41,501 nucleotides of DNA from the IMG/VR virus record IMGVR_UViG_3300032330_001524, positions 1-41,501 of that record; one strand, given 5' to 3'. Positions 1,553 to 41,501 of the stretch are shown here, piece after piece. A program made the position numbers and the translations under genes. The notes beneath the pieces are model-generated. The model was not told the DNA's origin. It did not search any database and saw only the letters and a list, made by a program, of their open reading frames with translations. The DNA comes from a virus. Lineage: Duplodnaviria > Caudoviricetes. Each line of letters opens with the position of its first letter. Position 1 is the first letter of the stretch.

Positions 1553-2292
1553 TGTTTTCCTTCTCCCTGAATTGCTTTTCGTTCTTCAACCATTTCCTGC
1601 AAATCAGCAATAACGTTTGCCGCTTGCACCGCGGTAAGGTCCGCGGATTGCTTCACGTTGTAATGCTCTTTCACTCCCAACCAGAAGCTTGCATCAACCC
1701 CGGCCTCGCGCCCAAGGCGCGCCATTTCTGCCAGCGCCTTTACCCCGGCTTTCCGTTCCGCCGGCGCTGTCGGTGCTGCCTGAACTGGTGCAGGTAGTGC
1801 CAGAGGTTCCACCGCCGCCCCGGGAATGCTTTCGACTTCTGACTCGTCTAGCATCCCAAGGCCGCATATTGAAAGCGTTACGCGCCGCTTCGCCTTGGTC
1901 TCCGCCTTCATCAAGGCGTTAGCCACTGCGTCCACCTGAAGGCCTTTAACGGGCACTGCGCCGGTGCTTTCGTCTGTTCTGCCGTCGGGCATGGTGGCAC
2001 GTGCTGTCACTACGTGCACGCCGTCGGTGGTTTCACGGTTGACGATTGATACGCTCACCCGGTGCACTCGGCGCAACTGGTCGGTTGCGTCTCGGCGCGC
2101 GTACAAAACAAGTTTGCCACTAAGCCGGAGGTACTGGAACGGTTGGCTTTCCAGCGTAAGCCCGGTGGCTTCGCATATTCTGCGCACTAGCTCGAGACGC
2201 TCTGCCGGTTGCAGGCGCTCAAGGTTGCCATCGACCACCGCGGTTTCCCACCTCTCCGCGGTGCTTTCCATCGGCATAAGCTCACTTGCCAT
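1549..2292 (-). CDS. Single-strand annealing protein (Rad52/RecT/Erf-superfamily-like recombinase)
   Basis: Start taken at MASEL (SD AGGGAGAGG). ANALMKAETKAKRRVTLSICGLG helix resembles the conserved SSAP C-terminal motif; adjacent to SSB-like gene. Confidence 0.6.
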   Translation of the reverse strand: MASELMPMESTAERWETAVVDGNLERLQPAERLELVRRICEATGLTLESQPFQYLRLSGKLVLYARRDATDQLRRVHRVSVSIVNRETTDGVHVVTARATMPDGRTDESTGAVPVKGLQVDAVANALMKAETKAKRRVTLSICGLGMLDESEVESIPGAAVEPLALPAPVQAAPTAPAERKAGVKALAEMARLGREAGVDASFWLGVKEHYNVKQSADLTAVQAANVIADLQEMVEERKAIQGEGKQ

Positions 2293-2485
2293 CTTGATTC
2301 CTCTCCCTTCTAATTTCGCTTCTGTCAATCCGAACACTAGGCCCGGCGGTAATGCGCAGGCTCACACGCCCACCCGCCGCCGCCTCCACCATAATCACAC
2401 ACTCGTTTTCCCCTTCGCCGATCACTAGCTCTTCGCCGACTTTACGGTTTAAGTAGAGCCCGCCAAAACTTGGCCCGTATGTCAT
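2282..2485 (-). CDS. csrA: CsrA/RsmA-family RNA-binding translational regulator
   Basis: LYLNRKVGEELVIG...VSLRITAGPSVRIDRSEI aligns with the CsrA pattern MLILTRRVGETLMIG...VRIGVNAPKEVSVHREEI, including the equivalent of the RNA-binding Arg. Confidence 0.75.
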   Translation of the reverse strand: MTYGPSFGGLYLNRKVGEELVIGEGENECVIMVEAAAGGRVSLRITAGPSVRIDRSEIRRERNQDGK

Positions 2486-2742
2486 CTTGAAACCTCCATG
2501 GTTATGTGGGCCGCTACTGGCCCTTGGTTAATCGTTACCGTAATTGTTTCCGCGTGCCGGCACCCGGCCACCAATGCCAGGAGCGCCAAGCCCCACCGGA
2601 TTGATGGGCGCCCCTTCGGCACCCATGGACGGTATACCACGGGTTTGGCTGCTTCAATTTCCGCCTTGGCCTTAGCCTCGGCTTCCGCCAAGGCTTCAAC
2701 CGCTGGCTGTATTTCGTCGGGTTTAAGGTCAAGCGATTTCAC
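2482..2742 (-). CDS. Hypothetical protein with internal hydrophobic segment and lipobox-like LVAGC
   Basis: Overlaps neighbours in operon style (ATGA with csrA); contains RWGLALLALVAGC. Confidence 0.6.
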   Translation of the reverse strand: MKSLDLKPDEIQPAVEALAEAEAKAKAEIEAAKPVVYRPWVPKGRPSIRWGLALLALVAGCRHAETITVTINQGPVAAHITMEVSR

Positions 2743-2929
2743 GGTGAGGTCTCCGTGCTTTCACGCATTCCAGCCCGGGGTGCGTTAATCCGTTGGCAAG
2801 CTCGCCAAGCTTCCAGAGGCGTTTGTACAAAAGGTCTTCGCCAAGGCTTTCAAGGTCTGCAACTAATCGTGTTGCTTCGTAGGAAAGCGCCAAGAGGCGC
2901 ATCTTGAATTCGTCTTCCATTGATTCCAT
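2729..2929 (-). CDS. Hypothetical helical protein
   Basis: Start revised to ATG 2929 after SD AGGAG. Confidence 0.6.
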   Translation of the reverse strand: MESMEDEFKMRLLALSYEATRLVADLESLGEDLLYKRLWKLGELANGLTHPGLECVKARRPHREIA

Positions 2930-2950
2930 CGGTCCATCTCCTGAAATAAG

Positions 2951-3057
2951 TGGGCAGGCCTGTGACAAAGAACCCTCGGGGCCACGCACCCCGCGCCAGG
3001 CCTGCCCGGTTTCCCCACGCGGTATTTATCGGGTGGGGGTGGCGGGAAGGCCTGCCA
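2951..3057 (-). ncRNA. Candidate structured intergenic RNA (three hairpins), family unknown
   Basis: Stems UGGC/GCCA, CCCCAC/GUGGGG and an 11-bp GGGCAGGCCUG/CAGGCCUGCCC enclosing CGGGG/CCCCG, in an otherwise tightly packed operon. Confidence 0.45.
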
Positions 3058-3058
3058 A

Positions 3059-3247
3059 TCATTCCCTAGTCATGCACTGGTGTAAATCCCAAACGTCGCC
3101 AAGCTCTTCTCGGGAGCTGCCGTCGCGCTCCCACGTTTGATAGAAAATCTCAATGGCTTGCTCGATGTTTTCGGCGTCTACCCGTCGAGTGCCGTTGTAC
3201 CCGTTAGCCAATACGCTGTAGCCAAGCTGAAAGGTGAGGCGTTCCAT
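3059..3247 (-). CDS. Hypothetical early protein
   Basis: ATG 3247 preceded by SD GGAG; directly downstream of the hammerhead. Confidence 0.65.
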   Translation of the reverse strand: MERLTFQLGYSVLANGYNGTRRVDAENIEQAIEIFYQTWERDGSSREELGDVWDLHQCMTRE

Positions 3248-3270
3248 TCTCAATCTCCATAAGGTTTGCG

Positions 3271-3321
3271 ACCCAGACCCCGAAGGGTTTCGCCCCGGCG
3301 CCCCGGGGCTCGTCAGTGGGT
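3271..3321 (-). ncRNA. Type I hammerhead ribozyme
   Basis: ACCCA-CUGACGA-GCCCCGG(GGCG)CCGGGGC-GAAA-CCC(UUCG)GGG-UC^UGGGU. All core nucleotides and three stems are present; predicted cut between 3276 and 3275. Confidence 0.92.
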
Positions 3322-3322
3322 T

Positions 3323-3508
3323 TCAACCGCGCCTTTGGTCTACAATCCATTGGGGCGGTAAACATTCCGAAGGAGCTTCGTCGCGGGCCTTGTAACCGTC
3401 TTTGAATCCTTTTCTGTATAGGAAAGCTTCTTTGCTTGTCAAACCAGATTCGCGGCAAGAACAATCAGCAAAACCATCTTCAAAACCAACCCAGTAAAAC
3501 TTTTCCAT
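3323..3508 (-). CDS. Small early protein with duplicated YxxGFxDG motif
   Basis: YWVGFEDG...YRKGFKDG; has its own promoter cassette and SD GGGAG. Confidence 0.65.
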   Translation of the reverse strand: MEKFYWVGFEDGFADCSCRESGLTSKEAFLYRKGFKDGYKARDEAPSECLPPQWIVDQRRG

Positions 3509-3616
3509 CTTCCGTCTCCCGTTTGCGTTTTCTTGAAACCGTCCTTCGGCTCCATGCCTGTATTCTAATCAGCGTTGCGACCCTGTCAAGAGGTTCCGGA
3601 AGATTTTTCCGGAACC
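3509..3616 (-). promoter_or_regulatory. Early promoter cassette A (sigma-70 promoter plus structured leader)
   Basis: TTGACA (3589-3584), 16 bp, TAGAAT (3567-3562); upstream inverted repeat 3592-3616; leader hairpin with AAGGA loop at 3546-3542. Confidence 0.85.
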
Positions 3617-3629
3617 CCGAAAAGTTTTC

Positions 3630-3956
3630 TTATAAGGCTTCAATAGTAAGGCCGCGGTCCTTGGCGATTTTTTCCGCCAGGCGCTGGGCGCTACGCTCGC
3701 TCCGGCAATCATAAACCTTGCCGACCCACTCGCCGTCGATCATAAGGCCCACGCACCAGATAAGGCTTTCGTCATCGTCGCCCACTTCTTGGGCCTCAGT
3801 GATTGCCACGTAGTATTGCGATTGGATTTCTGGAAGCTCTTCGGCTTCGGTGTCACCGACAAACCCGGTGAACTTCAAGAATTGCTGGTCATCTGACTTG
3901 GGGTCAACCGCGCCGTTGTAGTTGGTGTTGACGAAAGAAAAGTAAGTCTGGCTCAT
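3630..3956 (-). CDS. Acidic early hypothetical protein
   Basis: ATG 3956 after SD GGAG; an in-frame upstream ATG at 4004 coincides with the predicted transcription start. Confidence 0.7.
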   Translation of the reverse strand: MSQTYFSFVNTNYNGAVDPKSDDQQFLKFTGFVGDTEAEELPEIQSQYYVAITEAQEVGDDDESLIWCVGLMIDGEWVGKVYDCRSERSAQRLAEKIAKDRGLTIEAL

Positions 3957-4066
3957 GGTCCCGTTCTCCGTGTTGGCGTTTCTGACTGCGTCCTTCGCTG
4001 TCATGCCTGTATTATGATCAATGTCGCGACCATGTCAAGAGGGCCCGGAAGAATTTTTCCGGGCCC
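3957..4066 (-). promoter_or_regulatory. Early promoter cassette B
   Basis: TTGACA (4038-4033), 16 bp, CATAAT (4016-4011); inverted repeat 4041-4066; AAGGA loop at 3995-3991. Confidence 0.85.
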
Positions 4067-4077
4067 AAGAATTTTTC

Positions 4078-4389
4078 TTAGAGGCTAAGGTAAAGCCCCG
4101 TGCTGCGCTCGATGATTTCAACCAGCTGGTCGGCATAAACACCAGATAAATCAAGCTTCACGTTTTCGCCCTTAATCGTCATTCGGCTGAAAACCATGGT
4201 GTAGGTGTCGTCGGCATCCAAGGTGATTTTTACCGAATTGATGCCGTTCAAGCCGCGGGCCTTGAACTTGAACCAAAGCTGGTTTGGTTTGCCGTGCCCG
4301 ATTTGAACCGTTCCGCCGATCATTACCATGGCGCGCACGCCGCCGATTTGAGCGAAGGTTGTCGATTCGATTTGATTCAAAGTTGCCAT
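4078..4389 (-). CDS. Conserved-looking phage early protein of unknown function
   Basis: AQIGG...M.G...DTYTMVF...VYADQL...TGLYLSL pattern that I recall from phage hypothetical proteins; SD GGAG. Confidence 0.7.
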   Translation of the reverse strand: MATLNQIESTTFAQIGGVRAMVMIGGTVQIGHGKPNQLWFKFKARGLNGINSVKITLDADDTYTMVFSRMTIKGENVKLDLSGVYADQLVEIIERSTGLYLSL

Positions 4390-4471
4390 TGTCCCGTTCT
4401 CCGTATTCGCTGTCTTGGTCCCGTCCTTCGGTTCCATGCTTAAATTCTAGTCGGTGTTGCGACGCTGTCAA
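4390..4471 (-). promoter_or_regulatory. Early promoter cassette C
   Basis: TTGACA (4471-4466), 16 bp, TAGAAT (4449-4444); AAGGA loop at 4428-4424. Confidence 0.85.
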
Positions 4472-4484
4472 CACGTGATACAAT
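4457..4484 (+). promoter_or_regulatory. Divergent promoter for the regulator gene, overlapping cassette C
   Basis: TTGCGA (4457-4462), 16 bp, TACAAT (4479-4484); SD GAGGA before ATG 4511. Confidence 0.6.
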
Positions 4485-4510: not shown

Positions 4511-4912
4511 ATGCTTGATCTGGTTCCGCATGTTAACGCTCGAGAGCTCGCAGCAATGTTGGGCATAACCACCCAATCGGTTTGGGGCTTGGTGCGCCGC
4601 GGTGCTATCCTGCCACCCATTCGCATGAGTGCCCGTCGCCATGTCTGGTGCCTTGCCACTGCTGAGGGGATTGTTCGCGCGCGGAAGGAACCTAGGCTCC
4701 CGCAGGACACCACCCACCGCCGGCGCCGCGGAACCCAGCTCACCGTATGGGTGCCGCCGGAGTTGAAGCAGGCGCTCCAAGGTTTGGCTAAGGAAAACGG
4801 TACCACGCTCACCGGTGCCGTTTGTGCCGTCATCAAGTCTTGGTGGCTTGTTTGGGATAGCCAAACAAGGCCCGGTGTTTGTTTGGGTAAACACGACGGG
4901 TTAAAGTCTTAG
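4511..4912 (+). CDS. Transcriptional regulator: AlpA/Xis-like HTH fused to ribbon-helix-helix domain
   Basis: ARELAAMLGITTQSVWGLVRRGAILPPIRMSARRHVW (HTH plus wing); QLTVWVPPELKQALQGLAKENGTTLTGAV (RHH). The only credible plus-strand gene. Confidence 0.75.
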   Translation: MLDLVPHVNARELAAMLGITTQSVWGLVRRGAILPPIRMSARRHVWCLATAEGIVRARKEPRLPQDTTHRRRRGTQLTVWVPPELKQALQGLAKENGTTLTGAVCAVIKSWWLVWDSQTRPGVCLGKHDGLKS

Positions 4913-5632
4913 TCGGCTTGGGGTTGTGGTTTCTTGTTTGGTTGTTTGGAAGCCCCTATATACACCATAGGGGCTGTTCAAACAAGTGACTTATGGTAGG
5001 TCAATTAGGATAGATTGGTCGGCAATGTATTGGTGATCGACACCGCCAAAAGAGGTCAGGCGCTCCGGGGCGATTAGGTCCGCGGGCCGCATGGCGCCCC
5101 GGAACACCCATTCGGATTCCGGCCCCGTTCCGGTCATCAATACGTACCAGGTACGTTCAACCGCGGGCCTGTATTTCCGCACCGATACCCGGAGGCTTCC
5201 GGTAGGGTAGCGGGTGCATTTGATGTCCACCCCCTCGCCATTGGAAAGCCTGCAATCTATTTCAAGCGCCACGCCGGCGCCCTCTCTGATTCCTTCCGGG
5301 TATATGTTCAAGAGCTTGCAGAACGCCAATTCGGAGCAGCTTGCCAGTAGGTCTTGATCTTGCCACGCCCCGGCCCTGCTGCCGTCGCCAATGGCCCACC
5401 CTGGGACCTGTTGACGCGCCCTCCATTCGGCGCGCCGTGCTGCCATGGCGCGGGCCAATTCCTGCTCCGGCGCCGCCAAGGTAACCGCAGTTCCTTTGAT
5501 CATCGGCGCCCCTTGTTGGTTTAGGCTGTTTGCATATGCCAAACAACCTTAAGGCCTTGCGTTGTAATGGTTTGCGTATGTTAGTTTGCAATTTCCACGG
5601 GGTAGGGTTTGTTGTTTGGCGCACCCAAACAA
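4847..5632. repeat. Three TGTTTG-N7-CAAACA palindromes plus related half-sites
   Basis: Copies at 4849-4867, 5527-5545 and 5613-5631; further TGTTTG/CAAACA half-sites and a long hairpin around 4935-4985. Confidence 0.75.
4991..5503 (-). CDS. PD-(D/E)XK nuclease-fold-like protein
   Basis: SELAF...IDC...VDIKCT arrangement (E...D...D-x-K); start at ATG 5503 after AAGGGG. Confidence 0.55.
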   Translation of the reverse strand: MIKGTAVTLAAPEQELARAMAARRAEWRARQQVPGWAIGDGSRAGAWQDQDLLASCSELAFCKLLNIYPEGIREGAGVALEIDCRLSNGEGVDIKCTRYPTGSLRVSVRKYRPAVERTWYVLMTGTGPESEWVFRGAMRPADLIAPERLTSFGGVDHQYIADQSILIDLP

Positions 5633-7884: not shown

Positions 7885-8226
7885 TTAGAGCCCCAATTGC
7901 TTGGTGAGAATCCGAATTGCGATGCTCAAAACCAATGACCACGGGAACAGGCCTTGCACTGCTTGGGCGCAAGTCGGTTCCTGTTCGATAGCCGCCTCAA
8001 GCACCGCCAAGTCGCCGGCGCCTTCCAAGGTTTCAGCCACCGGGTCGGCTGTAATCAGAGGCCCACCGCCGAGGGTTTGCGATAGCGCATAACCTGCCAC
8101 GTTCCAGCACGCATGGACCAGCACCGGCGCCGGGATGTCGCCGCCCTTGACGCGATCCACGAGCAGCCCAAGGGCATAGGTTGGGAAGTCGGTTGGGTAT
8201 GGGGTAAGCATCATCAGATACTCCAA
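7885..8226 (-). CDS. Hypothetical protein, C-terminal hydrophobic helix
   Basis: LFPWSLVLSIAIRILTKQL; tiles between neighbours. Confidence 0.65.
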   Translation of the reverse strand: MEYLMMLTPYPTDFPTYALGLLVDRVKGGDIPAPVLVHACWNVAGYALSQTLGGGPLITADPVAETLEGAGDLAVLEAAIEQEPTCAQAVQGLFPWSLVLSIAIRILTKQLGL

Positions 8227-9101
8227 TTGATTCGGCGCGCCGGGAAGCCGTCAAGGCCTGAAAAGGCCCAACTGTCACCAGCTCCCAACATTCTATCAAC
8301 TACTTCCGCATCAGCCCAAAACCCGCACGCCGGCGGGTTGCCGGCGCCAATCGGCCCGGTGTGTTTGTTGTCGCCCCAGCTATTGCAAATAAATCCGCCG
8401 GGCCTGCTGCCGCTCTTATAGCCGATAAGCGCCATGCAATGATTCCAGGTTCCCGCGGCCTTGGCGAATCCGTCGGCATCTCGCTGGAACACAAACCCGC
8501 GGCTTGAACAGATTGCGATTCCGTACCCACTAGCCAAGGCTTGGCAAGCCTGTTGAAACGTTTTCACCAACGTAACAGCTCGCACTGGGTGGAGGCGCGC
8601 CACCGTCTCAATGCTGTCGGGTACACCAGTCCTTCCCCACTGCCGGCACCGTGTTTCATCGTATTGGCGCAAATCTTCGGCGCCGTAGACTTCCCGATCC
8701 ACGACACCCCACCGCCGCACAAACTCCGCCGCCCACGCGCCTACCGAACCGTCACCGCTGATCTTGCCTCCGCCCACTTCTACCCGACTTCCGGCGTAGA
8801 TGACTTCTTGCGCCAGGTCCTTGATGCCTTCCGCTTCGCCGGCCAGGATTTCCGCCGCCATGGTTGCTTCAATTGCTGCCGCGGTGCCAAAGCTCACGCA
8901 GCTCCCCACCTGCCCTTGGTTCCTGCCCGGCCACGGCTTGCCGGTGATGGTCTCGCGGGCTTTCCAAAGGAAGGCTTCCGGCGGTATGGTCTCTCGCTCT
9001 GCCGCGGGCGTCATCGAAAAAAACGGGAACGGCTGGGCGCCGGCCACCACCGCCACCGCTTCCGGATCGTCCACCCACCCCGGCACATAATCGACCATCA
9101 T
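8214..9101 (-). CDS. Papain-like (C1-type) cysteine peptidase
   Basis: RNQGQVGSCVSFG (Gln/Cys), NHCMALIGY (His), ICNSWG (Asn). Confidence 0.9.
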   Translation of the reverse strand: MMVDYVPGWVDDPEAVAVVAGAQPFPFFSMTPAAERETIPPEAFLWKARETITGKPWPGRNQGQVGSCVSFGTAAAIEATMAAEILAGEAEGIKDLAQEVIYAGSRVEVGGGKISGDGSVGAWAAEFVRRWGVVDREVYGAEDLRQYDETRCRQWGRTGVPDSIETVARLHPVRAVTLVKTFQQACQALASGYGIAICSSRGFVFQRDADGFAKAAGTWNHCMALIGYKSGSRPGGFICNSWGDNKHTGPIGAGNPPACGFWADAEVVDRMLGAGDSWAFSGLDGFPARRINWSI

Positions 9102-21789: not shown

Positions 21790-22371
21790 TTAGCCCCACT
21801 TCGGAATGTCGGCTCGAATATGGGCCAAGGCCTGCTCGTTAAATGGCAAGCCTATCAAATCTGTAACCGCTTGCAATTGTGTCGCCGGGTCAATCGTCGT
21901 TTCGGGAAACGCCACCCGCATTCTATCCGCCTCGGGCCAGGCCTGAAACAAACCTTCCAAGCTTGCCACTTGACTGGTGATTATTTCCCGCGCCTCTTCA
22001 ATTGAAAGATCGTGCCGGAGGGTTGAATAGGATGCCAACGTGGTTTCGATGTTTCGGGTGGTCCAAACCAAAACCTTGCGATCCACTTGGCATGCCTCAA
22101 CAAATGATTCCATCATGCCGGGAATAAATAGAAGCCGGTGGCTTTTAATGCCCCAAACGTCGGGCATTGAACGGGCTGCGAAGTATTCGTCCCACCCCAT
22201 AAAACCTTCAACGTCAAGAATCCTGTCCTTGTAGCTGCCGGTTGGATGCCACCCGGGCCAATCGCGCTCCACCGGCGCCGGGTTCATGTCTGCGCCGGAT
22301 TCATGCAAGAACCGCGCCAGCAATGAGGTGCCGGCGCGGTAGGTTCCTGCAACAATCACGCAGGTTGCCAT
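21790..22371 (-). CDS. Sulfotransferase-family (P-loop) protein
   Basis: IVAGTYRAGTSLL (5'-PSB-like), WGIKSHR, TTRN..TTLASY (3'-PB-like); start revised to 22371 (TAATG overlap). Confidence 0.7.
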   Translation of the reverse strand: MATCVIVAGTYRAGTSLLARFLHESGADMNPAPVERDWPGWHPTGSYKDRILDVEGFMGWDEYFAARSMPDVWGIKSHRLLFIPGMMESFVEACQVDRKVLVWTTRNIETTLASYSTLRHDLSIEEAREIITSQVASLEGLFQAWPEADRMRVAFPETTIDPATQLQAVTDLIGLPFNEQALAHIRADIPKWG

Positions 22372-22787
22372 TAGTTCTGGAAGCGTAGCGGGCTTGAGAT
22401 CGTCACCGAAAACGTGCCGGCGGTGCTGGTCACGTCGGTGCCAAAATCCACGTAGGCCACCAGTTCGTCGGCGCTTGCAAGGCCTCCGCGAGATTTGTAA
22501 ATCACACCGGCCCTGGCCGTGATGGTTGCCGTAGTCCAAGACGTGATTGCGAAGGTGATGTCCTCGCGGTTGTTCGTGTTGTCCTTGGTGCAGGTTGCCG
22601 CCGCGGCGTTGCCGCCGGTGGTGTAGCCGGTACCGGAAACCTCGTTGGTGACGTCGCTACGCTTGGCGTGAGTTTTGGCCGCGGTGTAGGAACTGGTCAC
22701 CAAAATCATCTTGAAGGTGTCGGTATCAAAATCAATTGACCCCTTAACCGTATCATCGAGGCATGAGTTATAAATCAGGCTTGCCAT
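22371..22787 (-). CDS. Virion structural protein (fibre-associated)
   Basis: IDFDTDTFKMIL...NEVSGTGYTTGG...ITARAGVIY...LVAYVDFG pattern typical of phage minor structural proteins. Confidence 0.7.
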   Translation of the reverse strand: MASLIYNSCLDDTVKGSIDFDTDTFKMILVTSSYTAAKTHAKRSDVTNEVSGTGYTTGGNAAAATCTKDNTNNREDITFAITSWTTATITARAGVIYKSRGGLASADELVAYVDFGTDVTSTAGTFSVTISSPLRFQN

Positions 22788-35031: not shown

Positions 35032-36096
35032 CTAATCATCTTGTTTTCCCGGCCTTAGCCATTGATCAATAACGGCCCGTGCTATTTGTTCTGTCATTTT
35101 CGGCGGTACGCTCATGCCTACCATATATTTGCCAATCGTGTCAGTCTTGGCGTGGTAATCGTCGGGAAAACTTCCAAAACGCTTTGCTTCTCTGAAGGTT
35201 ATTCTTCGGCATTCATCCCAATGCCTAATAGCCGGGCCCGATGGTAATGTCACGCACAAGGCGTTTTTATCTAATTTCTTTATTGAAAAGCCTGTTTGTT
35301 TTCCCGTCTCTCTCATTGCCGGCTTTCCATAATCTGATCCGCATTTTGTTTTGTGCCACCACTTCCTATCGTTTGCTGTCGCCGCAGTTTCTTCACGTTC
35401 ACCCGCCGTCAATTCTTGCACATCTCTTGTTGCTTCGCCAGCACTAATCCATCGGTGCTTCGGCGCAAATCTTAATAATGGCGCCTCAATATCGTTTCGC
35501 AGCGCACAAAAAAACACTCGCTCCCGGCGTTGCGGTACTCCACAATCTGCCGCATTCACAAGGAACAATTGCGGCCTGTATCCAATTTTTTTTAGCCTTT
35601 CCATCACAAGCTTCGTGTAACCTTTTGCGTTGCCCATGATCATTCCCTTAACGTTTTCCGCTATGGCAACGCGGGGCTTTAAGCGCTCCACCAGGTCAAG
35701 GTAATCAAAGAACAAGTCGCTCAGTACCTGAGAAGCCTGCCCTTCCCGAAAGTGCTTTTTTTTACCCCAATCTTTTTGCCGATTCCCCGCCATTGAAAAC
35801 GTGCTGCACGGTGGCGATCCATCAAGAATATCCAAGGCGAATAATTCTTCGGGAAGCTCCGCGGTTAACAAATCACGAATCGGGCAAAGATAATACAAAG
35901 GCGGGTTCAAGTTTTTTTTGTAATGCCACGCCATTTCCGGGTCGATATCGTTTGCCGCCACAATCTTGCAGCCTGCCCGCTTATACCCCATTGAAGAGCC
36001 GCCGCCACAAGCAAACGTGGACATAACCTTGATGCCGTTTTGAGGCACTGAATCAAGGTCCGATAGCTTCCAACTTATTTCGCTAAGCTCTTTCAT
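35032..36096 (-). CDS. C5 cytosine DNA methyltransferase
   Basis: TFACGGG, GSPPCSTFS, ENV, QRRERVF, VGMSVPP. Confidence 0.93.
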   Translation of the reverse strand: MKELSEISWKLSDLDSVPQNGIKVMSTFACGGGSSMGYKRAGCKIVAANDIDPEMAWHYKKNLNPPLYYLCPIRDLLTAELPEELFALDILDGSPPCSTFSMAGNRQKDWGKKKHFREGQASQVLSDLFFDYLDLVERLKPRVAIAENVKGMIMGNAKGYTKLVMERLKKIGYRPQLFLVNAADCGVPQRRERVFFCALRNDIEAPLLRFAPKHRWISAGEATRDVQELTAGEREETAATANDRKWWHKTKCGSDYGKPAMRETGKQTGFSIKKLDKNALCVTLPSGPAIRHWDECRRITFREAKRFGSFPDDYHAKTDTIGKYMVGMSVPPKMTEQIARAVIDQWLRPGKQDD

Positions 36097-36595
36097 TGTT
36101 AAACTCAAATTTACATTTCGGGCAAATCGTATCAAACTCAAATTCTTCCACGTCTACTTCTTCCGTCTGGCCTTCTTCCGCGCCAGGTATCACTCCCGCG
36201 GCCTCCGCCAGTTCCGCTAGCATCGTTGCCAAGGCCTGATTCCCCGTCTGTACATCCCTCAGCAGGCTGTCCAACTTTGCCGCGTCGCTGTCCGCCATGG
36301 CGCCGATAGGGTCATAGGTTGCGAGTATCTTGTCGGCTTCGGACTCCGTCACATCAAGCACTAGCACCGGTATTATACCGGCGCCGGCGGTTTCGCTCCT
36401 CAAGTGCCCGTCGATCAACATCAGGCCTTCCGGCGTCTCGCGGGCCAATACCGCACCCGCAAACCCTACCTCGGCGAGAAGGCCTTGGAGCGCTTCGGCT
36501 TGGGCCTTGCCATGCGTGCGCCAGTTCCGCGGGTTGGGTATCAGGTCACACGCCGGCACTCGCCTGAGCTCTTTAATCCTGTCCCGAATCTTCAT
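36083..36595 (-). CDS. ParB/Srx-like N-terminal domain protein with C-terminal CxxC
   Basis: LIPNPRNWRTH...LIDGHLR...CPKCKFEF. Confidence 0.85.
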   Translation of the reverse strand: MKIRDRIKELRRVPACDLIPNPRNWRTHGKAQAEALQGLLAEVGFAGAVLARETPEGLMLIDGHLRSETAGAGIIPVLVLDVTESEADKILATYDPIGAMADSDAAKLDSLLRDVQTGNQALATMLAELAEAAGVIPGAEEGQTEEVDVEEFEFDTICPKCKFEFNNERA

Positions 36596-36908
36596 ATTCG
36601 ATCTCCCCCGAAAGCCGGTAGTCCAGTCCCCTGCCCGCGGTGTGCCGATGGTGCAGGATGGTATCGTGTTCGTTGAACGGATTGAGTCCCTTGGCCACTC
36701 GCTCTGTCATTCTAGCGATTTTCTCGGCGCTACCCGGTGCCGTGTCTGTTTGTTTTGTATCTTCAGGCCTGTCACCGAAAAACTCCGGCAACACAATTCG
36801 GCAAAACGTTTCCCATGCCTCGACTTCCATCGAGATTGCGCCGCTAGCCTCCTCGATGCGCTCCACCAGCACTCTGATTAGTATCGTCTGGTTATGGTTG
36901 GGTTGCAT
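36573..36908 (-). CDS. Hypothetical protein with T.T.PGS.EK...R...G..PF...D motif
   Basis: Start revised to MQPNH; the motif resembles one I recall from planctomycete proteins. Confidence 0.6.
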   Translation of the reverse strand: MQPNHNQTILIRVLVERIEEASGAISMEVEAWETFCRIVLPEFFGDRPEDTKQTDTAPGSAEKIARMTERVAKGLNPFNEHDTILHHRHTAGRGLDYRLSGEIEYEDSGQD

Positions 36909-37317
36909 CCGCGGGCCCCTTAATGCCATGGATGCGCACCCGTAGGAAGGCCTTGTCCTTGGCCTTGGGCGGGTCGCTGTAGGTAATGGTAATACGTCGA
37001 ACAATGTCGTGATTGTCATCGGGAATAAGTCCGGCGTGAACCAGGAAGTCTAGTATGGGTTTTAGCACGTTGTCGATGTCGCGCCCCTTGCGCCACCCCT
37101 TCCCGCCAGTCATCCACAACCGCACCGCCACCGGCCCCGGGAAGGCTCCCGGCCTGCCGATCATCAAGTGAGAGATGCGAAGCCAGGTGAGGTAGTTACG
37201 TGAGCGGAACACCTTGCCGCGGGAACCACGTTGCCAAATGTGGTTAATACTCGGGGGGGGCTCAAGGTTAAATGTAACCTTGGCTAGCGGTGTTTGATCT
37301 GGCCCGGGTGCGGGCAT
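36892..37317 (-). CDS. rusA: RusA-like Holliday junction resolvase
   Basis: PPSINHIW...RDIDNVLKPILDFL...IPDDN. Confidence 0.85.
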   Translation of the reverse strand: MPAPGPDQTPLAKVTFNLEPPPSINHIWQRGSRGKVFRSRNYLTWLRISHLMIGRPGAFPGPVAVRLWMTGGKGWRKGRDIDNVLKPILDFLVHAGLIPDDNHDIVRRITITYSDPPKAKDKAFLRVRIHGIKGPADATQP

Positions 37318-37319
37318 CG

Positions 37320-37619
37320 CTATTCTCTCATGTCTTGGTGTTCTCTGCAAACCCACCGTAAGAGCTTCCGGGCCGCCAACAAATCCGCCACGGCTTCATC
37401 GGCGCCTTCCCATGATCGGCTTAGAATTTCCATCACTTGGTGCTGCACCCTGTCCACCGCAAACCGGTAGCGGAGGTTTGCAAGGTCTTGGAGTAGCTGC
37501 TTCCCGTCGGCGTTGGTCAGCCGCTTCCCGCTTTCAAGCACTGCGTCCAACCGCGCAATGTCTGCGCAGGTGGTCACCGTGCCTGTGGAAGCGTCAATCA
37601 GTTCGGGAAGGTCAATCAT
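37320..37619 (-). CDS. Hypothetical protein
   Basis: Tiles between neighbours. Confidence 0.6.
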   Translation of the reverse strand: MIDLPELIDASTGTVTTCADIARLDAVLESGKRLTNADGKQLLQDLANLRYRFAVDRVQHQVMEILSRSWEGADEAVADLLAARKLLRWVCREHQDMRE

Positions 37620-37629
37620 GGTGCCGCCC

Positions 37630-37815
37630 CTATTCGTCGATTAGGTCCGGTGGCTCCTGTGCTTTCCAGCACCGGCAAGTAGTCCGCTCTTGCTGAATCT
37701 GCGCCTTCAACCGTTCCACTTCTGCCGTAGCTTCCGCCCACTGGTGGGCCAGGGCTTCAAGCGCCGCGGCTAGAACCTCCGGCGTCAATTGTCGCTCTAT
37801 GAAGTCCTTCCTCAT
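37630..37815 (-). CDS. Hypothetical coiled-coil protein
   Basis: SD GAGG; tiles in operon. Confidence 0.6.
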   Translation of the reverse strand: MRKDFIERQLTPEVLAAALEALAHQWAEATAEVERLKAQIQQERTTCRCWKAQEPPDLIDE

Positions 37816-37818
37816 TCT

Positions 37819-38565
37819 TTATTCCTCCCCTTCATCGTACCCCATGGATGACATCACGCTAGCAAGTTTCCGTTTGCTCTGCTTCCAAATTTGGTCCACC
37901 CGTTGCCGGGTAATACCGATTCGCCTTCCGATGGCTCGCTCTGGTTCTTCGTCTATTATTGCCGCTACGACTTCCTGTGAGCGCGTTGGAAGGCTTCGCA
38001 GGCCTTGCCGTACATCGTCCACCAGGTGGGCCGCTGCCCTTGCTGGGTCCGGCTGCCGGTGGTCTTCAATGTCGATGGTGTAGGATTCGCCATCGGTGCC
38101 GCGGGTGTGCAGGGATTGCGCCGCCAGGGATTTTCGGATGCGCTCCATGCGCACATATTCAACCGCTATCGACCAGCAAACCCGGTAGCACCAAGTGCTG
38201 AAGGCGCCCTTGGTTCCATCGAAACTGTGCAGGTTCCGCAGCACATTCAACGCGCATTCCTGCTGCCAGTCCTCAACGTCGATGCCCGTCGGCACCCATC
38301 GGCGCGCCGCCTTGTAGACTAAGGGCAAATTGTTGTCGTAGAATTCCCGCACTTCCGGCGATGCTGGCGGTAGGATCTTTGACTTCCGATACGCTTCAAC
38401 CGCCACGACGTTTGCCGCCGCCGCTGTCGGCGTCCAATACCGATGCCGGCGGTTCCGTATCATGCCGGTGGGTGGCGATATGATGCCGCGGTTTAGAAGG
38501 TGGGTCACGTTAGAAACGTGCATTCCGCACATCACCGCCAGGTCTTTTGCCATAATCCGTTCCAC
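37819..38565 (-). CDS. Sigma-70-family factor with extra N-terminal HTH
   Basis: Region 2 NLPLVYKAARR...EDWQQE...FDGTKGAFSTW; region 4 LPTRSQEV...IGRRIGITRQRVDQI. Confidence 0.85.
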   Translation of the reverse strand: MERIMAKDLAVMCGMHVSNVTHLLNRGIISPPTGMIRNRRHRYWTPTAAAANVVAVEAYRKSKILPPASPEVREFYDNNLPLVYKAARRWVPTGIDVEDWQQECALNVLRNLHSFDGTKGAFSTWCYRVCWSIAVEYVRMERIRKSLAAQSLHTRGTDGESYTIDIEDHRQPDPARAAAHLVDDVRQGLRSLPTRSQEVVAAIIDEEPERAIGRRIGITRQRVDQIWKQSKRKLASVMSSMGYDEGEE

Positions 38566-38568
38566 GGT

Positions 38569-38754
38569 TCAACCTCCCACCGCTTCAATTTTCAATAACA
38601 AATCCCGCACCCACTCGGGGTGATATTCCTCGCCGCAGATTTCCGCCTTGGTGTTTTCGCGCAGCACTTGCGCGGTTTCCTTCAAGATGCCCTGATACAT
38701 CATGATTGCAAGCTTGGCGCTTGCAAAGTCTGAGATGATGTAGTTGGCCATCAA
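38569..38754 (-). CDS. Hypothetical protein
   Basis: Overlap with upstream stop; SD AGGAG. Confidence 0.6.
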   Translation of the reverse strand: MMANYIISDFASAKLAIMMYQGILKETAQVLRENTKAEICGEEYHPEWVRDLLLKIEAVGG

Positions 38755-39047
38755 ACACGCTCCTTGCTTTTTGATATTATTTCTCTTACTTGTCGTTCAA
38801 TAACATCGCAAGCTTCTCGCGTCTTTGGGTATTGTTTCTTCATATAATCTGTAGGCAAATAAATATGATTGTTTTCATCTGGATAATACTCGGCGCCTTC
38901 CTGTTGCATTACATCCCAAAGAATTACAAACTCAAGTCCAGCCAAAGCCGCGGAAACAAAAACTCTTCCGTCTATATATAGGCCTGCTTTTAGTGCCCAC
39001 TTGGGAGCCTTTGCTTTAGAGTTTTTAACTTCAGTCCATTGCATCAT
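38751..39047 (-). CDS. Hypothetical protein (AT-rich)
   Basis: Start revised to ATG 39047 after GGAG. Confidence 0.6.
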   Translation of the reverse strand: MMQWTEVKNSKAKAPKWALKAGLYIDGRVFVSAALAGLEFVILWDVMQQEGAEYYPDENNHIYLPTDYMKKQYPKTREACDVIERQVREIISKSKERV

Positions 39048-39139
39048 GATAATACTCCATAAATAGCCAATAAAAACAAACCGCCCAAACCAAACACAAA
39101 ACAAACCAGCACGCAAAAAAACACCCACGCCAATAACAT
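39044..39139 (-). CDS. 31-aa membrane peptide
   Basis: MLLAWVFFCVLVCFVFGLGGLFLLAIYGVLS; ATGA overlap with the next gene; below the ORF-track cutoff. Confidence 0.5.
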   Translation of the reverse strand: MLLAWVFFCVLVCFVFGLGGLFLLAIYGVLS

Positions 39140-39164
39140 GGCCACCGGTGTGGGCGGGATTCGT

Positions 39165-40310
39165 TCAATCATCTCTTGCTTCCTCCGCTATCCTCCTGCC
39201 GATCCACTGCATAACCGGCACCGCCATTGAATTGCCAAGCGCCTTGTATCGCGGCCCGTCTGGTGATTCAGTCTTCTTGCGCCAAGGTATATTGGTGTAA
39301 CCATCTGGAAAGCCTTGCAGTCTTTCGCATTCTGTTGGCGTGAGCCGGCGCACGGCTGTTGATGTTGCCACCGCTGCCGTGGCGTTTCCGCTTTTGCTTC
39401 CGCTTCCTAATGCGTGAGTAGTGTTTTCGCTGCTGATTGGATCTTGTGTTGGATGGAAGGCTATCGCCACCGCTGTTTGATTATCGCCCATGTTTTTTCG
39501 TAGCGTGCCTGTGACCTCATTCGTGAAGCGGCTTTCGCCACCTTCTCGGCCTGCAATGCCTGGCTCAAAGGCGGTGGCAATTAGTCTGCCTGTGTATGCG
39601 TCTTGTCCTGAGTAACTGCCGGGGTGCGAGTCAGGGCATAAGGCACCAACAACTAAATGCTCTCCTCTGGAGCTTGGCACTCCTCCCGCACCACCGCTTC
39701 TAAGGCAGTTCGCAACATTGGTGGCAATTCCTTTCCCCTTTTCTCGGCTCGGCGCAGGATTCCGGCACACGCTTTCGCACTCAAAAAGAACCTTTGCGGC
39801 ACGTTGCCAGTCTCCAAGACATCCGACAACGAAGACACGACGGCGCCGCTGGGCCAATCCGAACCACTGAGCGTCAAGCACTCGGTAGGCCCACCCATAC
39901 CCCAGCTTTGCCAGCGCCCCGAGGAAGGTTCCAAAATCCCTTCCTCGGTTGGACGACAATACTCCGGGGACGTTTTCCCAAACGAGCCATCGAGGTTTAA
40001 ATCGTTCAGCAATCGCCAAATAGGTGAGCATGAGGTTCCCGCGGGGGTCGTTAAGTCCTTGCCTGAGCCCTGCAACGCTGAACGACTGGCAGGGGGTTCC
40101 TCCGGCCAAAACGTCAATTGCACCAATTCTTCCACTATCCCACTCCCTATATTTCAGCATATCGCCTAGGTTTGGCGTTTCCGGGTAATGGTGCGCCAAT
40201 ACTGCTGACGGAAAAGGCTCGATTTCAGAATACGCCACCGCCTGCCAGCCTAGTGAATGCCACGCTACGGTAGCGGCTTCAATGCCCGAGCAGACGCTAA
40301 GATATTTCAT
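39165..40310 (-). CDS. C5 cytosine DNA methyltransferase
   Basis: MKYLSVCSGIEA, GGTPCQSFS, WENVPG, QRRRRVF, RRLTPTECERLQGFPD, LGNSM. Confidence 0.95.
   Translation of the reverse strand: MKYLSVCSGIEAATVAWHSLGWQAVAYSEIEPFPSAVLAHHYPETPNLGDMLKYREWDSGRIGAIDVLAGGTPCQSFSVAGLRQGLNDPRGNLMLTYLAIAERFKPRWLVWENVPGVLSSNRGRDFGTFLGALAKLGYGWAYRVLDAQWFGLAQRRRRVFVVGCLGDWQRAAKVLFECESVCRNPAPSREKGKGIATNVANCLRSGGAGGVPSSRGEHLVVGALCPDSHPGSYSGQDAYTGRLIATAFEPGIAGREGGESRFTNEVTGTLRKNMGDNQTAVAIAFHPTQDPISSENTTHALGSGSKSGNATAAVATSTAVRRLTPTECERLQGFPDGYTNIPWRKKTESPDGPRYKALGNSMAVPVMQWIGRRIAEEARDD
39653..40135 (-). CDS. Nested alternative-frame ORF in methyltransferase (beta-polypeptide-like)
   Basis: 160-codon same-strand ORF ending LSDVLETGNVPQRFFLSAKACAGILRRAEKRGKELP; arrangement like M.EcoHK31I alpha/beta. 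Confidence 0.55.
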   Translation of the reverse strand: MEELVQLTFWPEEPPASRSALQGSGKDLTTPAGTSCSPIWRLLNDLNLDGSFGKTSPEYCRPTEEGILEPSSGRWQSWGMGGPTECLTLSGSDWPSGAVVSSLSDVLETGNVPQRFFLSAKACAGILRRAEKRGKELPPMLRTALEAVVREECQAPEESI

Positions 40311-41501
40311 CCGGTAGCCTCCACCATTGCTTGCCGTCTCGCTCCTCTTGTTCCACCCGGGCGCCTTCCTTGGCTTTATATAGCCGACTTGAACCGATGC
40401 CAGAAGCCTGAGCATCATTCCGGATTAGGGAAACTCGCTTCGGGCCCAATGCCAATGCCTCCCGTAACCAATCCATGTCGCCCCCCAGGTTTGCCGCGGG
40501 CCTGTCCGGTTCGCCGCCGGTGGCGTCGGCGCCTCGGGGCGGGTCCAAATCGTATTCGTTGCCGGCGCTGCCCATCGTCACCCCAAGCGCCGGCGGTTTC
40601 TTGCTGTTGGTTTTGCTTACTTGCAACCGGCGCCGATTCTCGGCTGTTGCGTCAGGGGCGTCAAGGTTAATGACCTGCCTTACTGCGCCAACAATCCGAT
40701 TGCCCAAAACCTGCCCGCCACGGTTTAGGTGAGTGACCAGCACGATTGAAACGTTGGATCGGGTGGCGATCTCCGCTAGCGGTTTAAAAAACGCCTTGGC
40801 TTCCTCGGGCCTGCCCTGATTCCTATCGGTTGCGTTGCCGCACGTGTCCACAAACACCACCACCGGTTGCACTCGCCGGATTCGCCGCTCAAGCGCTGCG
40901 AGGTCTTCAATGCTGTCCAAATTGGTGCCGGCGTATGGGTTGGAGCGGTTGCCGTTAAGAACAATCGCTTCCGGTGCAAACCCGAACTCCCCCGGTATGG
41001 TCCCCAGTTCAGCCCATTGACTATCGGCTGCAATCCACATGACGCGAGAGCCCACCGGGTGCGTCGCCGGCGTTCCATCGGGCCACGGAAGGCCCAACCA
41101 TAGGCGCCGTGCAATGTCGGCACATAGGCGAGTTTTACCAATGCCGGGGTCACTTGCCAAGCAGGTAAGCGTCCCGCGTTGAATCCACCCCGGCCAAGTC
41201 CACGTGATGGTTGCCTGAAGGGCGATAAGGTCCGCCGCGGTTGCGTCTGGGTCACCTTCCGGCGGTATATCCTCCGGCACTGACTCCGGCCCGAGGTACG
41301 ATGCCGCGGGCCTTGGTGCAGGCCTTCCCGCGGGCTGGGCCTGCCTGCCGGCGCCAAGTAGCCGGCCAGTTTCCTTGGCGTTCTTCGCCGCGCTGCTAAT
41401 CTTGTGCGCCAGTTCCGGCTCTGTCCACGGTGGCGCGCAAGTCTGATTCCATTCTCGAAGCAAGGCTAGCGCTGTCTCCTGATCTAGCCCGAAGCCTTCC
41501 A
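40297..41501 (-). CDS. Primase-helicase, C-terminal part (RecA-fold AAA_25/RepA-like helicase)
   Basis: Walker A SDPGIGKT, Walker B VFVDT, LVTHLNR; joined to 1..1006 across the junction. Confidence 0.88.
   Translation of the reverse strand, partial: EGFGLDQETALALLREWNQTCAPPWTEPELAHKISSAAKNAKETGRLLGAGRQAQPAGRPAPRPAASYLGPESVPEDIPPEGDPDATAADLIALQATITWTWPGWIQRGTLTCLASDPGIGKTRLCADIARRLWLGLPWPDGTPATHPVGSRVMWIAADSQWAELGTIPGEFGFAPEAIVLNGNRSNPYAGTNLDSIEDLAALERRIRRVQPVVVFVDTCGNATDRNQGRPEEAKAFFKPLAEIATRSNVSIVLVTHLNRGGQVLGNRIVGAVRQVINLDAPDATAENRRRLQVSKTNSKKPPALGVTMGSAGNEYDLDPPRGADATGGEPDRPAANLGGDMDWLREALALGPKRVSLIRNDAQASGIGSSRLYKAKEGARVEQEERDGKQWWRLPDEIS
41379..41501. repeat. Terminal direct repeat (copy 2)
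   Basis: Identical to 1-123. Confidence 0.95.

Follow-up and report, generated by a model that had tools for sequence, protein, structure and literature searches.

AAGGA-loop leader hairpins and a divergent CsrA homologue in a 41-kb phage: a candidate circuit for early translational control

Phage T4 shuts off its early mRNAs post-transcriptionally with two proteins of its own, RegA and RegB, which act at ribosome sites, RegB on GGAG. T4-like phages also carry PeSL stem-loop cassettes, reportedly described in Arbiol 2010. The PeSL design comprises an upstream stem-loop, a sigma-70 promoter, a Shine-Dalgarno (SD) sequence and a variable gene (Comeau 2014, PMC4122927). CsrA-type dimers repress glgC and hcnA by bridging two GGA-containing sites of one mRNA, over a range given as 10-63 nt with an optimum of >18 nt (PMC7652899; the range also in PMC4066749). 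Homologues of csrA have been reported in 30 of 2517 phages (Sobrero and Valverde 2020, PMC7366521), and csrA-tldR-fliC loci pair an accessory CsrA with a flagellin target whose 5' untranslated region contains a GGA stem-loop, as shown by RNA immunoprecipitation sequencing (PMC13418256). Here we describe the virus record IMGVR_UViG_3300032330_001524 (Duplodnaviria; Caudoviricetes), a complete 41,501-base genome with direct terminal repeats that was analysed at its full length and is called the window below. Its early region holds three promoter-leader cassettes, each with an AAGGA-loop hairpin, and a gene for a CsrA homologue (Table 1).

Leader cassettes and their conservation in relatives

Each of the three minus-strand cassettes has a sigma-70 promoter and, at the predicted +1, a 22-nt hairpin, followed by an A/C-rich linker and a GGAG ribosome site with another GGA. 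The promoters (TTGACA-16-YAKAAT at 4471, 4038 and 3589) match 11 of 12 consensus bases each. An ATG lies 6 nt past each -10 box (4437, 4004 and 3555), at the +1 position predicted from the promoter, and the first genes begin 48, 48 and 47 nt after it. The sequence CGAAGGACG (CG-AAGGA-CG) occurs exactly three times in the genome (3540-3548, 3989-3997 and 4422-4430), always at the same offset, with loops starting at 4428, 3995 and 3546. This arrangement had been proposed from the letters alone, together with gene starts 47-48 nt after +1 and ACGGA or GGGA words over the ribosome sites, and our analysis bears it out in all three cassettes (ACGGAG in cassettes 1 and 2, GGGAG plus ACGGA in cassette 3). 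Shuffled genomes held on average 0.36 copies of CG-AAGGA-CG, and none of 100 reached three. However, the cassettes are 66-72% identical over 106 nt and are thus paralogous repeats, so that the shuffle test demonstrates the repeat rather than selection, for which the evidence comes from relatives.

The first 24-25 nt of the three leaders fold as hairpins with an open AAGGA loop (-7.3, -7.3 and -9.4 kcal/mol; z-scores -2.8, -4.2 and -3.8), and the whole 57-58-nt leaders are not unusually stable (z -1.2, -0.3 and -2.1). In context, the loop is unpaired with a probability of 1.0, 0.6 and 1.0; the closing pair of the second unit forms with a probability of 0.58 when coding sequence is added, compared with 0.97-0.98 in units 1 and 3. 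The original prediction that the stem arms differ yet still pair holds insofar as the hairpins fold, but GGAAC/GGACC pairs only in part and TGACAG/CAGTCA contains an A.A mismatch. An Rfam scan of the window matched no RNA family.

We gathered eight related genomes or contigs using the CsrA, its 247-aa neighbour, the promoter spacer, the sigma factor and the hammerhead as queries. With the window, these nine genomes contain 25 cassettes (22 in a first collection, two more, and one with a damaged -35 box), all found through the promoter or spacer and not through the loop; one cassette with a 17-bp spacer is left out of the 24 tabulated. In contig L411, cassette 2 has lost its -35 box and kept its leader. 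The loop reads ANGGA in 25 of 25 cassettes (AAGGA in 20, AGGGA in 4 and ACGGA in 1) and is closed by G-C, A-U or G-U. Among the 24 tabulated cassettes, four of five loop positions are invariant, as are five of 17 stem positions and none of the ten in the linker. In the 22 aligned cassettes (21 distinct), 88% of stem cells are paired, compared with 13-41% for slid control structures, and four of the eight stem pairs are altered on both sides. The percentage paired and the covariation score each lay above all 500 shuffles, the copies being related to one another.

Since an AUG stands at +1 in every copy, it could be translated into a leaderless peptide or an N-terminal extension (MEPKD/MTAKD), with conservation reflecting coding or translational coupling. 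Eight of the 24 frames run in phase into the gene, and 11 close with a TGA that overlaps the gene start; the leaders are U-poor, so that stops are rare anyway, which weakens this evidence. CsrA control through a coupled upstream open reading frame is reportedly known for iraD. However, the +1 frame lacks conservation: residues 2-5 take six forms (EPKD, TAKD, EPRD, TARD, GPKD or KPTD), the leader measures 46, 47 or 48 nt even ahead of the same gene, one copy has an early stop, at codon 9, five of the 24 are neither fused nor coupled, and the stem engages U2 and G3 of the AUG in base pairs. Translation from +1 therefore appears highly improbable as the basis of the element, and the variable residues, frame and leader length of the 24 cassettes rule out the KD dipeptide, against which the original prediction had warned, or a conserved upstream frame as the cause of conservation; what is conserved follows RNA pairing, not peptide. 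Given a loop fixed except at N, the covarying stem and the unconserved +1 frame, the element is best explained, as far as the sequence comparison goes, as an RNA hairpin whose loop is under selection.

The CsrA homologue and the ribosome sites

The open reading frame at 2282-2485, proposed as a csrA homologue downstream on the same strand, scored 35 bits against PF02599 (CsrA; cut-off 27) and matched phrog_9500, which is CsrA-like. The doubt whether it would fold as CsrA was allayed by a model (predicted local distance difference test score, pLDDT, 88) for which the top 14 Foldseek rows from the PDB were all CsrA, RsmA or RsmE (probability 0.97-1.0; none with E<=0.001), although beta1 and beta5 were not assigned as strands in this monomer model. 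Alignment indicated that L4 and R44 of the RNA-binding surface are kept, as are R6 and E46, and R55 (the equivalent of R44) is invariant across 51 homologues; L4 and R44 are critical for RNA binding by CsrA (PMC7652899). Residues I3, T5, Q29, R31 and P37 are changed. The protein is 94-97% identical among relatives, and its nearest Atlas clusters are mostly viral CsrA proteins, with scores under 0.9 that make them a lead only. A tblastn search of GenBank phages found no match, and a P0009 search for the nearest monomeric CsrA relatives returned no viral locus. Judging from its scores below the CsrA equivalog cut-offs, the frame encodes a divergent CsrA paralogue and not a housekeeping orthologue.

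Duss 2014 (PMC4005645) gives an ANGGAX hexaloop on a C-G pair as the optimal site and, quoting Lapouge 2013, adds that AGGGA and AAGGA pentaloops bind RsmE at high affinity. In 24 of the 25 cassettes, the loop is one of these two pentaloops. ACGGA and AUGGA pentaloops are reportedly poor RsmE targets. The loop GGA starts at leader position 12 and the SD GGA at positions 35-37 in all 24 tabulated cassettes, with a third GGA at positions 42-44 in 23 of them. The distance from loop GGA to SD GGA, ~21-22 nt, falls inside the 10-63 nt bridging range, a weak criterion because every GGAG SD contains a GGA.

Among genes called by script around the hammerhead in seven genomes of the lineage, 51 of 60 have at least two GGA within 22 nt of the start codon (a count that leaves out the partial L377). 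The corresponding figures were 8 of 41 genes in a sister lineage with a fused CsrA (5 of 12 loci), 1 of 16 in a third group (three loci) and 18 of 108 in other hammerhead-sharing phages (18 loci picked from 73). Within the window, the doubled GGA marks 7 of 10 early and 3 of 13 late GGAG genes (p 0.04, with hand-picked starts), and the primase start at 1006 has GGAG and a second GGA too. Four GGA lie within 40 nt after the hammerhead in six of eight lineage genomes; in the window and L377, a different gene occupies this place and has one GGA in its leader. The regular exception is csrA itself, whose ribosome site has a single AUGGA and no second GGA; an AACC-AUGGA-GGUU pentaloop over its SD has a closing-pair probability of 0.0-0.93 in eight genomes and 0.01 in the window. 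Counts of A(N)GGA at early ribosome sites (10 of 10, against 3 of 13 late; p 0.0004) were discarded as not discriminating, because the word also stands at most early sites of the fused-CsrA lineage and early sites are A-rich.

A CsrA-family protein, of the phage or its host, is the probable reader of these leaders. More tentatively, and as a possibility that falls somewhat short of probable, the phage CsrA itself may bridge hairpin loop and ribosome site and so repress early translation. Host polymerase would fire P1-P3 at phage entry, and open, A-rich ribosome sites would let translation of the early genes begin immediately. CsrA would come from transcripts of P1-P3 that read through the hammerhead and the structured intergenic stretch, and would therefore lag the early genes. 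By analogy with glgC, one face of the dimer would be tethered at the ANGGA loop and the other would bind the GGA at or behind the SD, shutting off translation of the earliest genes; the reader would be the phage protein rather than that of the host. The cassette likely doubles as a recombination joint, so that any incoming gene would inherit the control. The shut-off envisaged in the original prediction is partly supported, by loops, spacing and CsrA fold, but co-occurrence across phages runs counter to a circuit specific to the phage CsrA.

Leaders and csrA across phages

Several observations weigh against a selected hairpin that phage CsrA reads. GGA-rich leaders were found in only two of eight csrA-bearing groups, the other six lacking GGA-rich ribosome sites (L215/L216, with the fused CsrA, L368/L393, L404, L389, L370 and L400). 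Where 5' hairpins were seen in these (the fused-CsrA lineage and L404), their loops read AACGAC, AACAAC, AACUGA or ACAUC. Moreover, the nine genomes are one lineage and so provide a single instance of csrA together with GGA leaders, or two if L154 is included. Two pair-count measures of covariation were reached by 58 and 186 of 500 shuffles and are not significant, and the G-C to A-U change beside the loop is synonymous in the +1 frame. The canonical C-ANGGAN-G hexaloop is not matched, the loops fitting the alternative ARGGA pentaloop class. The A content of ribosome sites is higher in early than in late genes (0.37 vs 0.24), and the gene starts were chosen by hand or by a crude script. The protein scores far below the CsrA equivalog cut-offs (23.8 vs 70.1 for TIGR00202, 22.7 vs 73 for PRK01712) and carries T5N, Q29R, R31S and an N-terminal extension. 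Finally, the unrelated genome G001 has ANGGA leaders and no csrA by Pfam or our own profile, and early cassettes commonly have 5' hairpins whose loops vary: in G002 only 2 of ~30 promoter-like sites in 20 kb fold an AGGGA pentaloop. The co-occurrence of csrA and leaders that the original prediction proposed as a check was therefore not borne out: csrA groups without GGA leaders and G001 leaders without detectable csrA mean that ANGGA leaders do not track phage csrA.

The second csrA group with GGA-rich leaders, L154, is an unrelated phage of 72% GC in which one promoter is followed by an AUGGA-loop hairpin and then by an SD with ACGGA. The sister lineage has the hammerhead and, at 88-90%, the first gene in common with the study lineage, yet it encodes a 106-aa tandem CsrA-like protein; downstream of its early promoters, ACGA-rich leaders carry 5' hairpins whose loops read AACGAC, AACAAC or AACUGA. 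The fused protein appears to keep beta1 of its first half and beta5 of its second, and from its sequence may be a single-chain CsrA with one RNA-binding face. It had no Pfam or NCBIfam match and a single-sequence fold model of pLDDT 35; the assignment rests on our own profile and 51% identity over 45 aa. No csrA was detected in 39 control records, most of them fragments.

A promoter plus C-R-ANGGA-Y-G scan gave 119 new loci, eight with a stable pentaloop among the matches listed, one of these being the study lineage; a metagenome scan (119 loci) found no new lineage. A promoter-ATG-N6-AAGGA pattern, matched at 120 viral loci, gives no evidence of a widespread motif, most matches being ordinary SD sequences in unrelated phages. 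Among these 120, hairpin plus downstream SD occurred only in the study lineage, and csrA was seen only in its loci. G001 (57 kb, 97% complete) has six promoter-linked CG-ANGGA-CG hairpins (five AUGGA, one AAGGA) in cassettes at C1 ~35800-40900 (L547, L548) reading GCGGCG-A(U/A)GGA-CGCCGC and then AAGGAG, and several have a further AGGA at the 5' end. Its loop GGA and its SD GGA are separated by 8 nt, less than the bridging minimum. G002 was dropped as convergent support, since a promoter list gathered without bias showed variable loops; single copies in G004, L416 and L475 were not used. The G002 locus L549 (C1 74000-93999) is a large PeSL-like host-takeover region with ~30 strong promoter-like sites in 20 kb, many followed by long 5' hairpins and a shared SD leader. 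Taken together, ANGGA leaders look, from sequence comparison, like a recurrent and selected element.

These comparisons also bear on whether host CsrA reads the leaders. Binding at the 5' end would then protect the mRNA from RNase E, as in flhDC, or soak up host CsrA, and phage csrA would have host mRNAs as its targets or compete with host CsrA. The six G001 leaders, with no detectable csrA and GGA spacing below the bridging minimum, fit this explanation, as do the sister groups with csrA and no GGA leaders, the documented 5'-end protection of flhDC by CsrA (PMC7652899) and loop variants that suit a conventional RsmE-type reader. We nevertheless regard a host reader as unlikely, since the extra GGAs in or just behind the SD of most early genes form a repression geometry. 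Nor do the leaders suit the role of a CsrA sponge, also raised in the original prediction: each leader offers one loop, placed before an SD and a gene, a poor match to the multi-GGA CsrB and RsmZ, and Rfam gave no match. RsmZ holds eight GGA (PMC4005645).

Alternatively, CsrA may play no role, the leader being a generic 5'-protective PeSL stem-loop whose loop is shared by descent or recombination, and the doubled GGA a tandem SD habit. The architecture matches the PeSLs described in PMC4122927, 10 different first-gene N-termini stand behind the 24 cassettes, and comparable 5' hairpins with unrelated loops exist in sister groups and G002. Furthermore, lineages without csrA have SD words of their own, such as GAAG in L365, and L386 (56% complete, no csrA seen) has 5 of 8 sites doubled. 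However, the stems of the paralogues diverged with compensation while four loop bases stayed fixed and N alone varied, in three states; the same N-only variation arose independently in G001, and, as G002 shows, protection by a hairpin does not require the loop to be fixed. An element without CsrA is therefore rather unlikely in our view.

Each phage group repeats its own short word at early ribosome sites, for example GAAG (L365), GAT (L342/L398/L401/L409) or AGAC (L404/L368/L393), and such words occur with or without csrA. The leader words are GGA in the study lineage, ACGA/GAY at the same places in its fused-CsrA sister and ACACGAG/AGAC in a third lineage. CsrA specificity is thought to be set by backbone contacts. 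That phage CsrA paralogues are reprogrammable early-gene repressors co-evolving with the leader word seems quite unlikely; if true, the specificity of CsrA could be altered, and the swappable cassettes would give every phage a translational clock of its own.

Table 1. Positions of the cassettes and other features (window coordinates unless a locus is named)
Feature	Position	Strand	Remarks
Promoter P1, TTGACA-16-TAGAAT	4444-4471	minus	spacer palindrome GTYGCRAC at 4456-4463
Leader hairpin 1, from predicted +1	4416-4437	minus	AAGGA pentaloop 4428-4424; 3+3 bp, 2x2 internal loop
Ribosome site, cassette 1	4390-4404	minus	ACGGAG and second GGA ahead of ATG 4389
First gene, cassette 1	4078-4389	minus	103 aa, phrog_9437 (unknown function); other genes take its place in relatives
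Inverted repeat upstream of P2	4041-4066	.	PeSL-type stem-loop; terminator-like on plus strand
Promoter P2, TTGACA-16-CATAAT	4011-4038	minus	spacer GTCGCGAC
Leader hairpin 2	3983-4004	minus	AAGGA loop 3995-3991
Ribosome site, cassette 2	3957-3971	minus	ACGGAG and second GGA ahead of ATG 3956
First gene, cassette 2	3630-3956	minus	108 aa, no family match; same gene in 8/8 cassette-2 copies
Inverted repeat upstream of P3	3594-3614	.	
Promoter P3, TTGACA-16-TAGAAT	3562-3589	minus	spacer GTCGCAAC
Leader hairpin 3	3534-3555	minus	8 bp; AAGGA loop 3546-3542
Ribosome site, cassette 3	3509-3522	minus	GGGAG and ACGGA ahead of ATG 3508
First gene, cassette 3	3323-3508	minus	61 aa, no family match; different gene in most relatives
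GTYGCRAC palindromes	4456-4463, 4023-4030, 3574-3581		in P1-P3 spacers
Divergent gene	4511-4912	plus	weak HTH_17 and ribbon-helix-helix (RHH) matches; behind overlapping plus-strand promoter 4457-4484
Predicted type I hammerhead ribozyme	3272-3320	minus	CUGACGA...GAAA...UC; predicted cut after 3276
Conserved structured intergenic stretch	2940-3058	minus	between early cassettes and csrA/replication genes
csrA homologue	2282-2485	minus	67 aa, 8-residue N-terminal extension; L12=L4, R14=R6, R55=R44, E57=E46
Downstream genes	1070-2292	minus	247-aa protein and DUF669 protein, each with GGAG and second GGA
Tandem CsrA-like protein	L216:4682-5002	plus	106 aa; also in L215, L218, L341, L344, L348 and others

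Genomic surroundings and described systems

Judging from the gene swaps, the cassettes are likely PeSL-like gene-swapping units at which recombination takes place. This design was not noted in the original prediction, and neither were the recurrence of the second GGA at most early and replication genes, the spacer palindrome and the hammerhead within the interval. A stem-loop just upstream of the promoter is clear for P2 and P3, P1 having a loose inverted repeat only. Two of the 10 first-gene N-termini differ by one residue, and cassette 2 keeps one gene. The GTYGCRAC palindrome stands in the promoter spacer of every copy, partly by construction of the search. This candidate operator is likely read by the HTH/RHH protein of the divergent gene, which is 77-92% identical in eight relatives; no homologue was found in those loci of the sister lineage that were searched. 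In the sister lineage, the leader starts with a similar word (GTCGCAAC, GTTGCAAC, GTCACAAC). Palindromes of a different kind, TGTTTG-N7-CAAACA, occur three times in the genome, all in this region (4848-4868, 5526-5546 and 5612-5632), and are possible operators or origin sites.

The predicted hammerhead at 3272-3320, assigned by its core consensus, was not detected by Rfam. Among 40 distinct variants from 73 viral loci, stem I is fully paired in 38, with many compensatory forms, and the ribozyme usually lies 20-45 nt before an SD and start codon. Hammerheads between phage genes have been described (PMC3088659). The intergenic stretch at 2940-3058, conserved over 120 nt in seven genomes with compensatory changes, has three CAGGCCT-like arms with alternative pairings directly ahead of an SD, and is a possible switch or attenuator ahead of csrA.

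The minus strand carries nearly all window genes, running from the small early genes (from 4437) through csrA, the DUF669 protein and primase and helicase domains across the genome ends to methylases, a sigma factor, RusA, terminase, portal, capsid and tail. The 247-aa protein, for which profile searches found no family match, is taken as a recombination protein by position alone. Other genes include two C5 methyltransferases (35032-36141 and 39165-40418), a sigma-70 family factor (37819-38565), a sulfotransferase-like gene (21790-22539) and a papain-like peptidase (8214-9101). A host search through the terminase gave matches at most 42% identical and no host; the match to Planctomycetaceae was too weak. 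L411 is a 35-kb contig of the phage lineage inside an assembly titled Sphingorhabdus, which was not accepted as host, the contig being probably co-binned. No match to RegA or RegB was found among the 37 window proteins scanned.

The covarying element and the CsrA homologue are, as far as sequence comparison can tell, real, and the link between them is attractive but unproven. Our search of the open-access literature listed no paper that demonstrates action of a phage CsrA on mRNAs of the phage encoding it. The survey of phage and plasmid csrA alleles, which places the gene in ~1% of phage genomes, names no target in its available text and calls for loss-of-function tests (PMC7366521), whereas the window supplies a concrete candidate target in the same genome. 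The test set is small, namely a 67-aa protein, three 47-48-nt leaders and the loop and stem variants that occur naturally in eight relatives; built-in controls come from sister phages, whose CsrA paralogues and leader words differ.

The bridging repression of glgC in Escherichia coli and hcnA in Pseudomonas protegens resembles the proposed circuit in its CsrA fold with L4 and R44, its upstream ANGGA loop, its SD GGA ~22 nt away and the presence of AAGGA and AGGGA loops among RsmE sites. In the phage, however, regulator and candidate targets share one genome, the loop is a G-C-closed pentaloop at the extreme 5' end and not a C-G-closed hexaloop, a third GGA lies between SD and AUG, and the protein is divergent with an N-terminal extension. 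T4-like PeSL cassettes likewise repeat a stem-loop, a sigma-70 promoter and an SD before small genes that vary among close relatives, whereas the cassettes described here sit in a 41-kb phage with a lambda-type portal and add a transcribed fixed-loop 5' hairpin and a palindrome in the 16-bp spacer, neither mentioned in the available text of PMC4122927. The csrA-tldR-fliC loci are, as described in PMC13418256, chromosomal, found in gut bacteria and directed at flagellin through a canonical CAAGGAUG site, in contrast to the phage early region considered here. If host CsrA alone binds the leaders, these phages would plug early expression into the Csr state of the host. If the phage CsrA reads them, a bacterial global regulator would have been turned into a phage timing switch, a counterpart of T4 RegA and RegB built from an unrelated protein.

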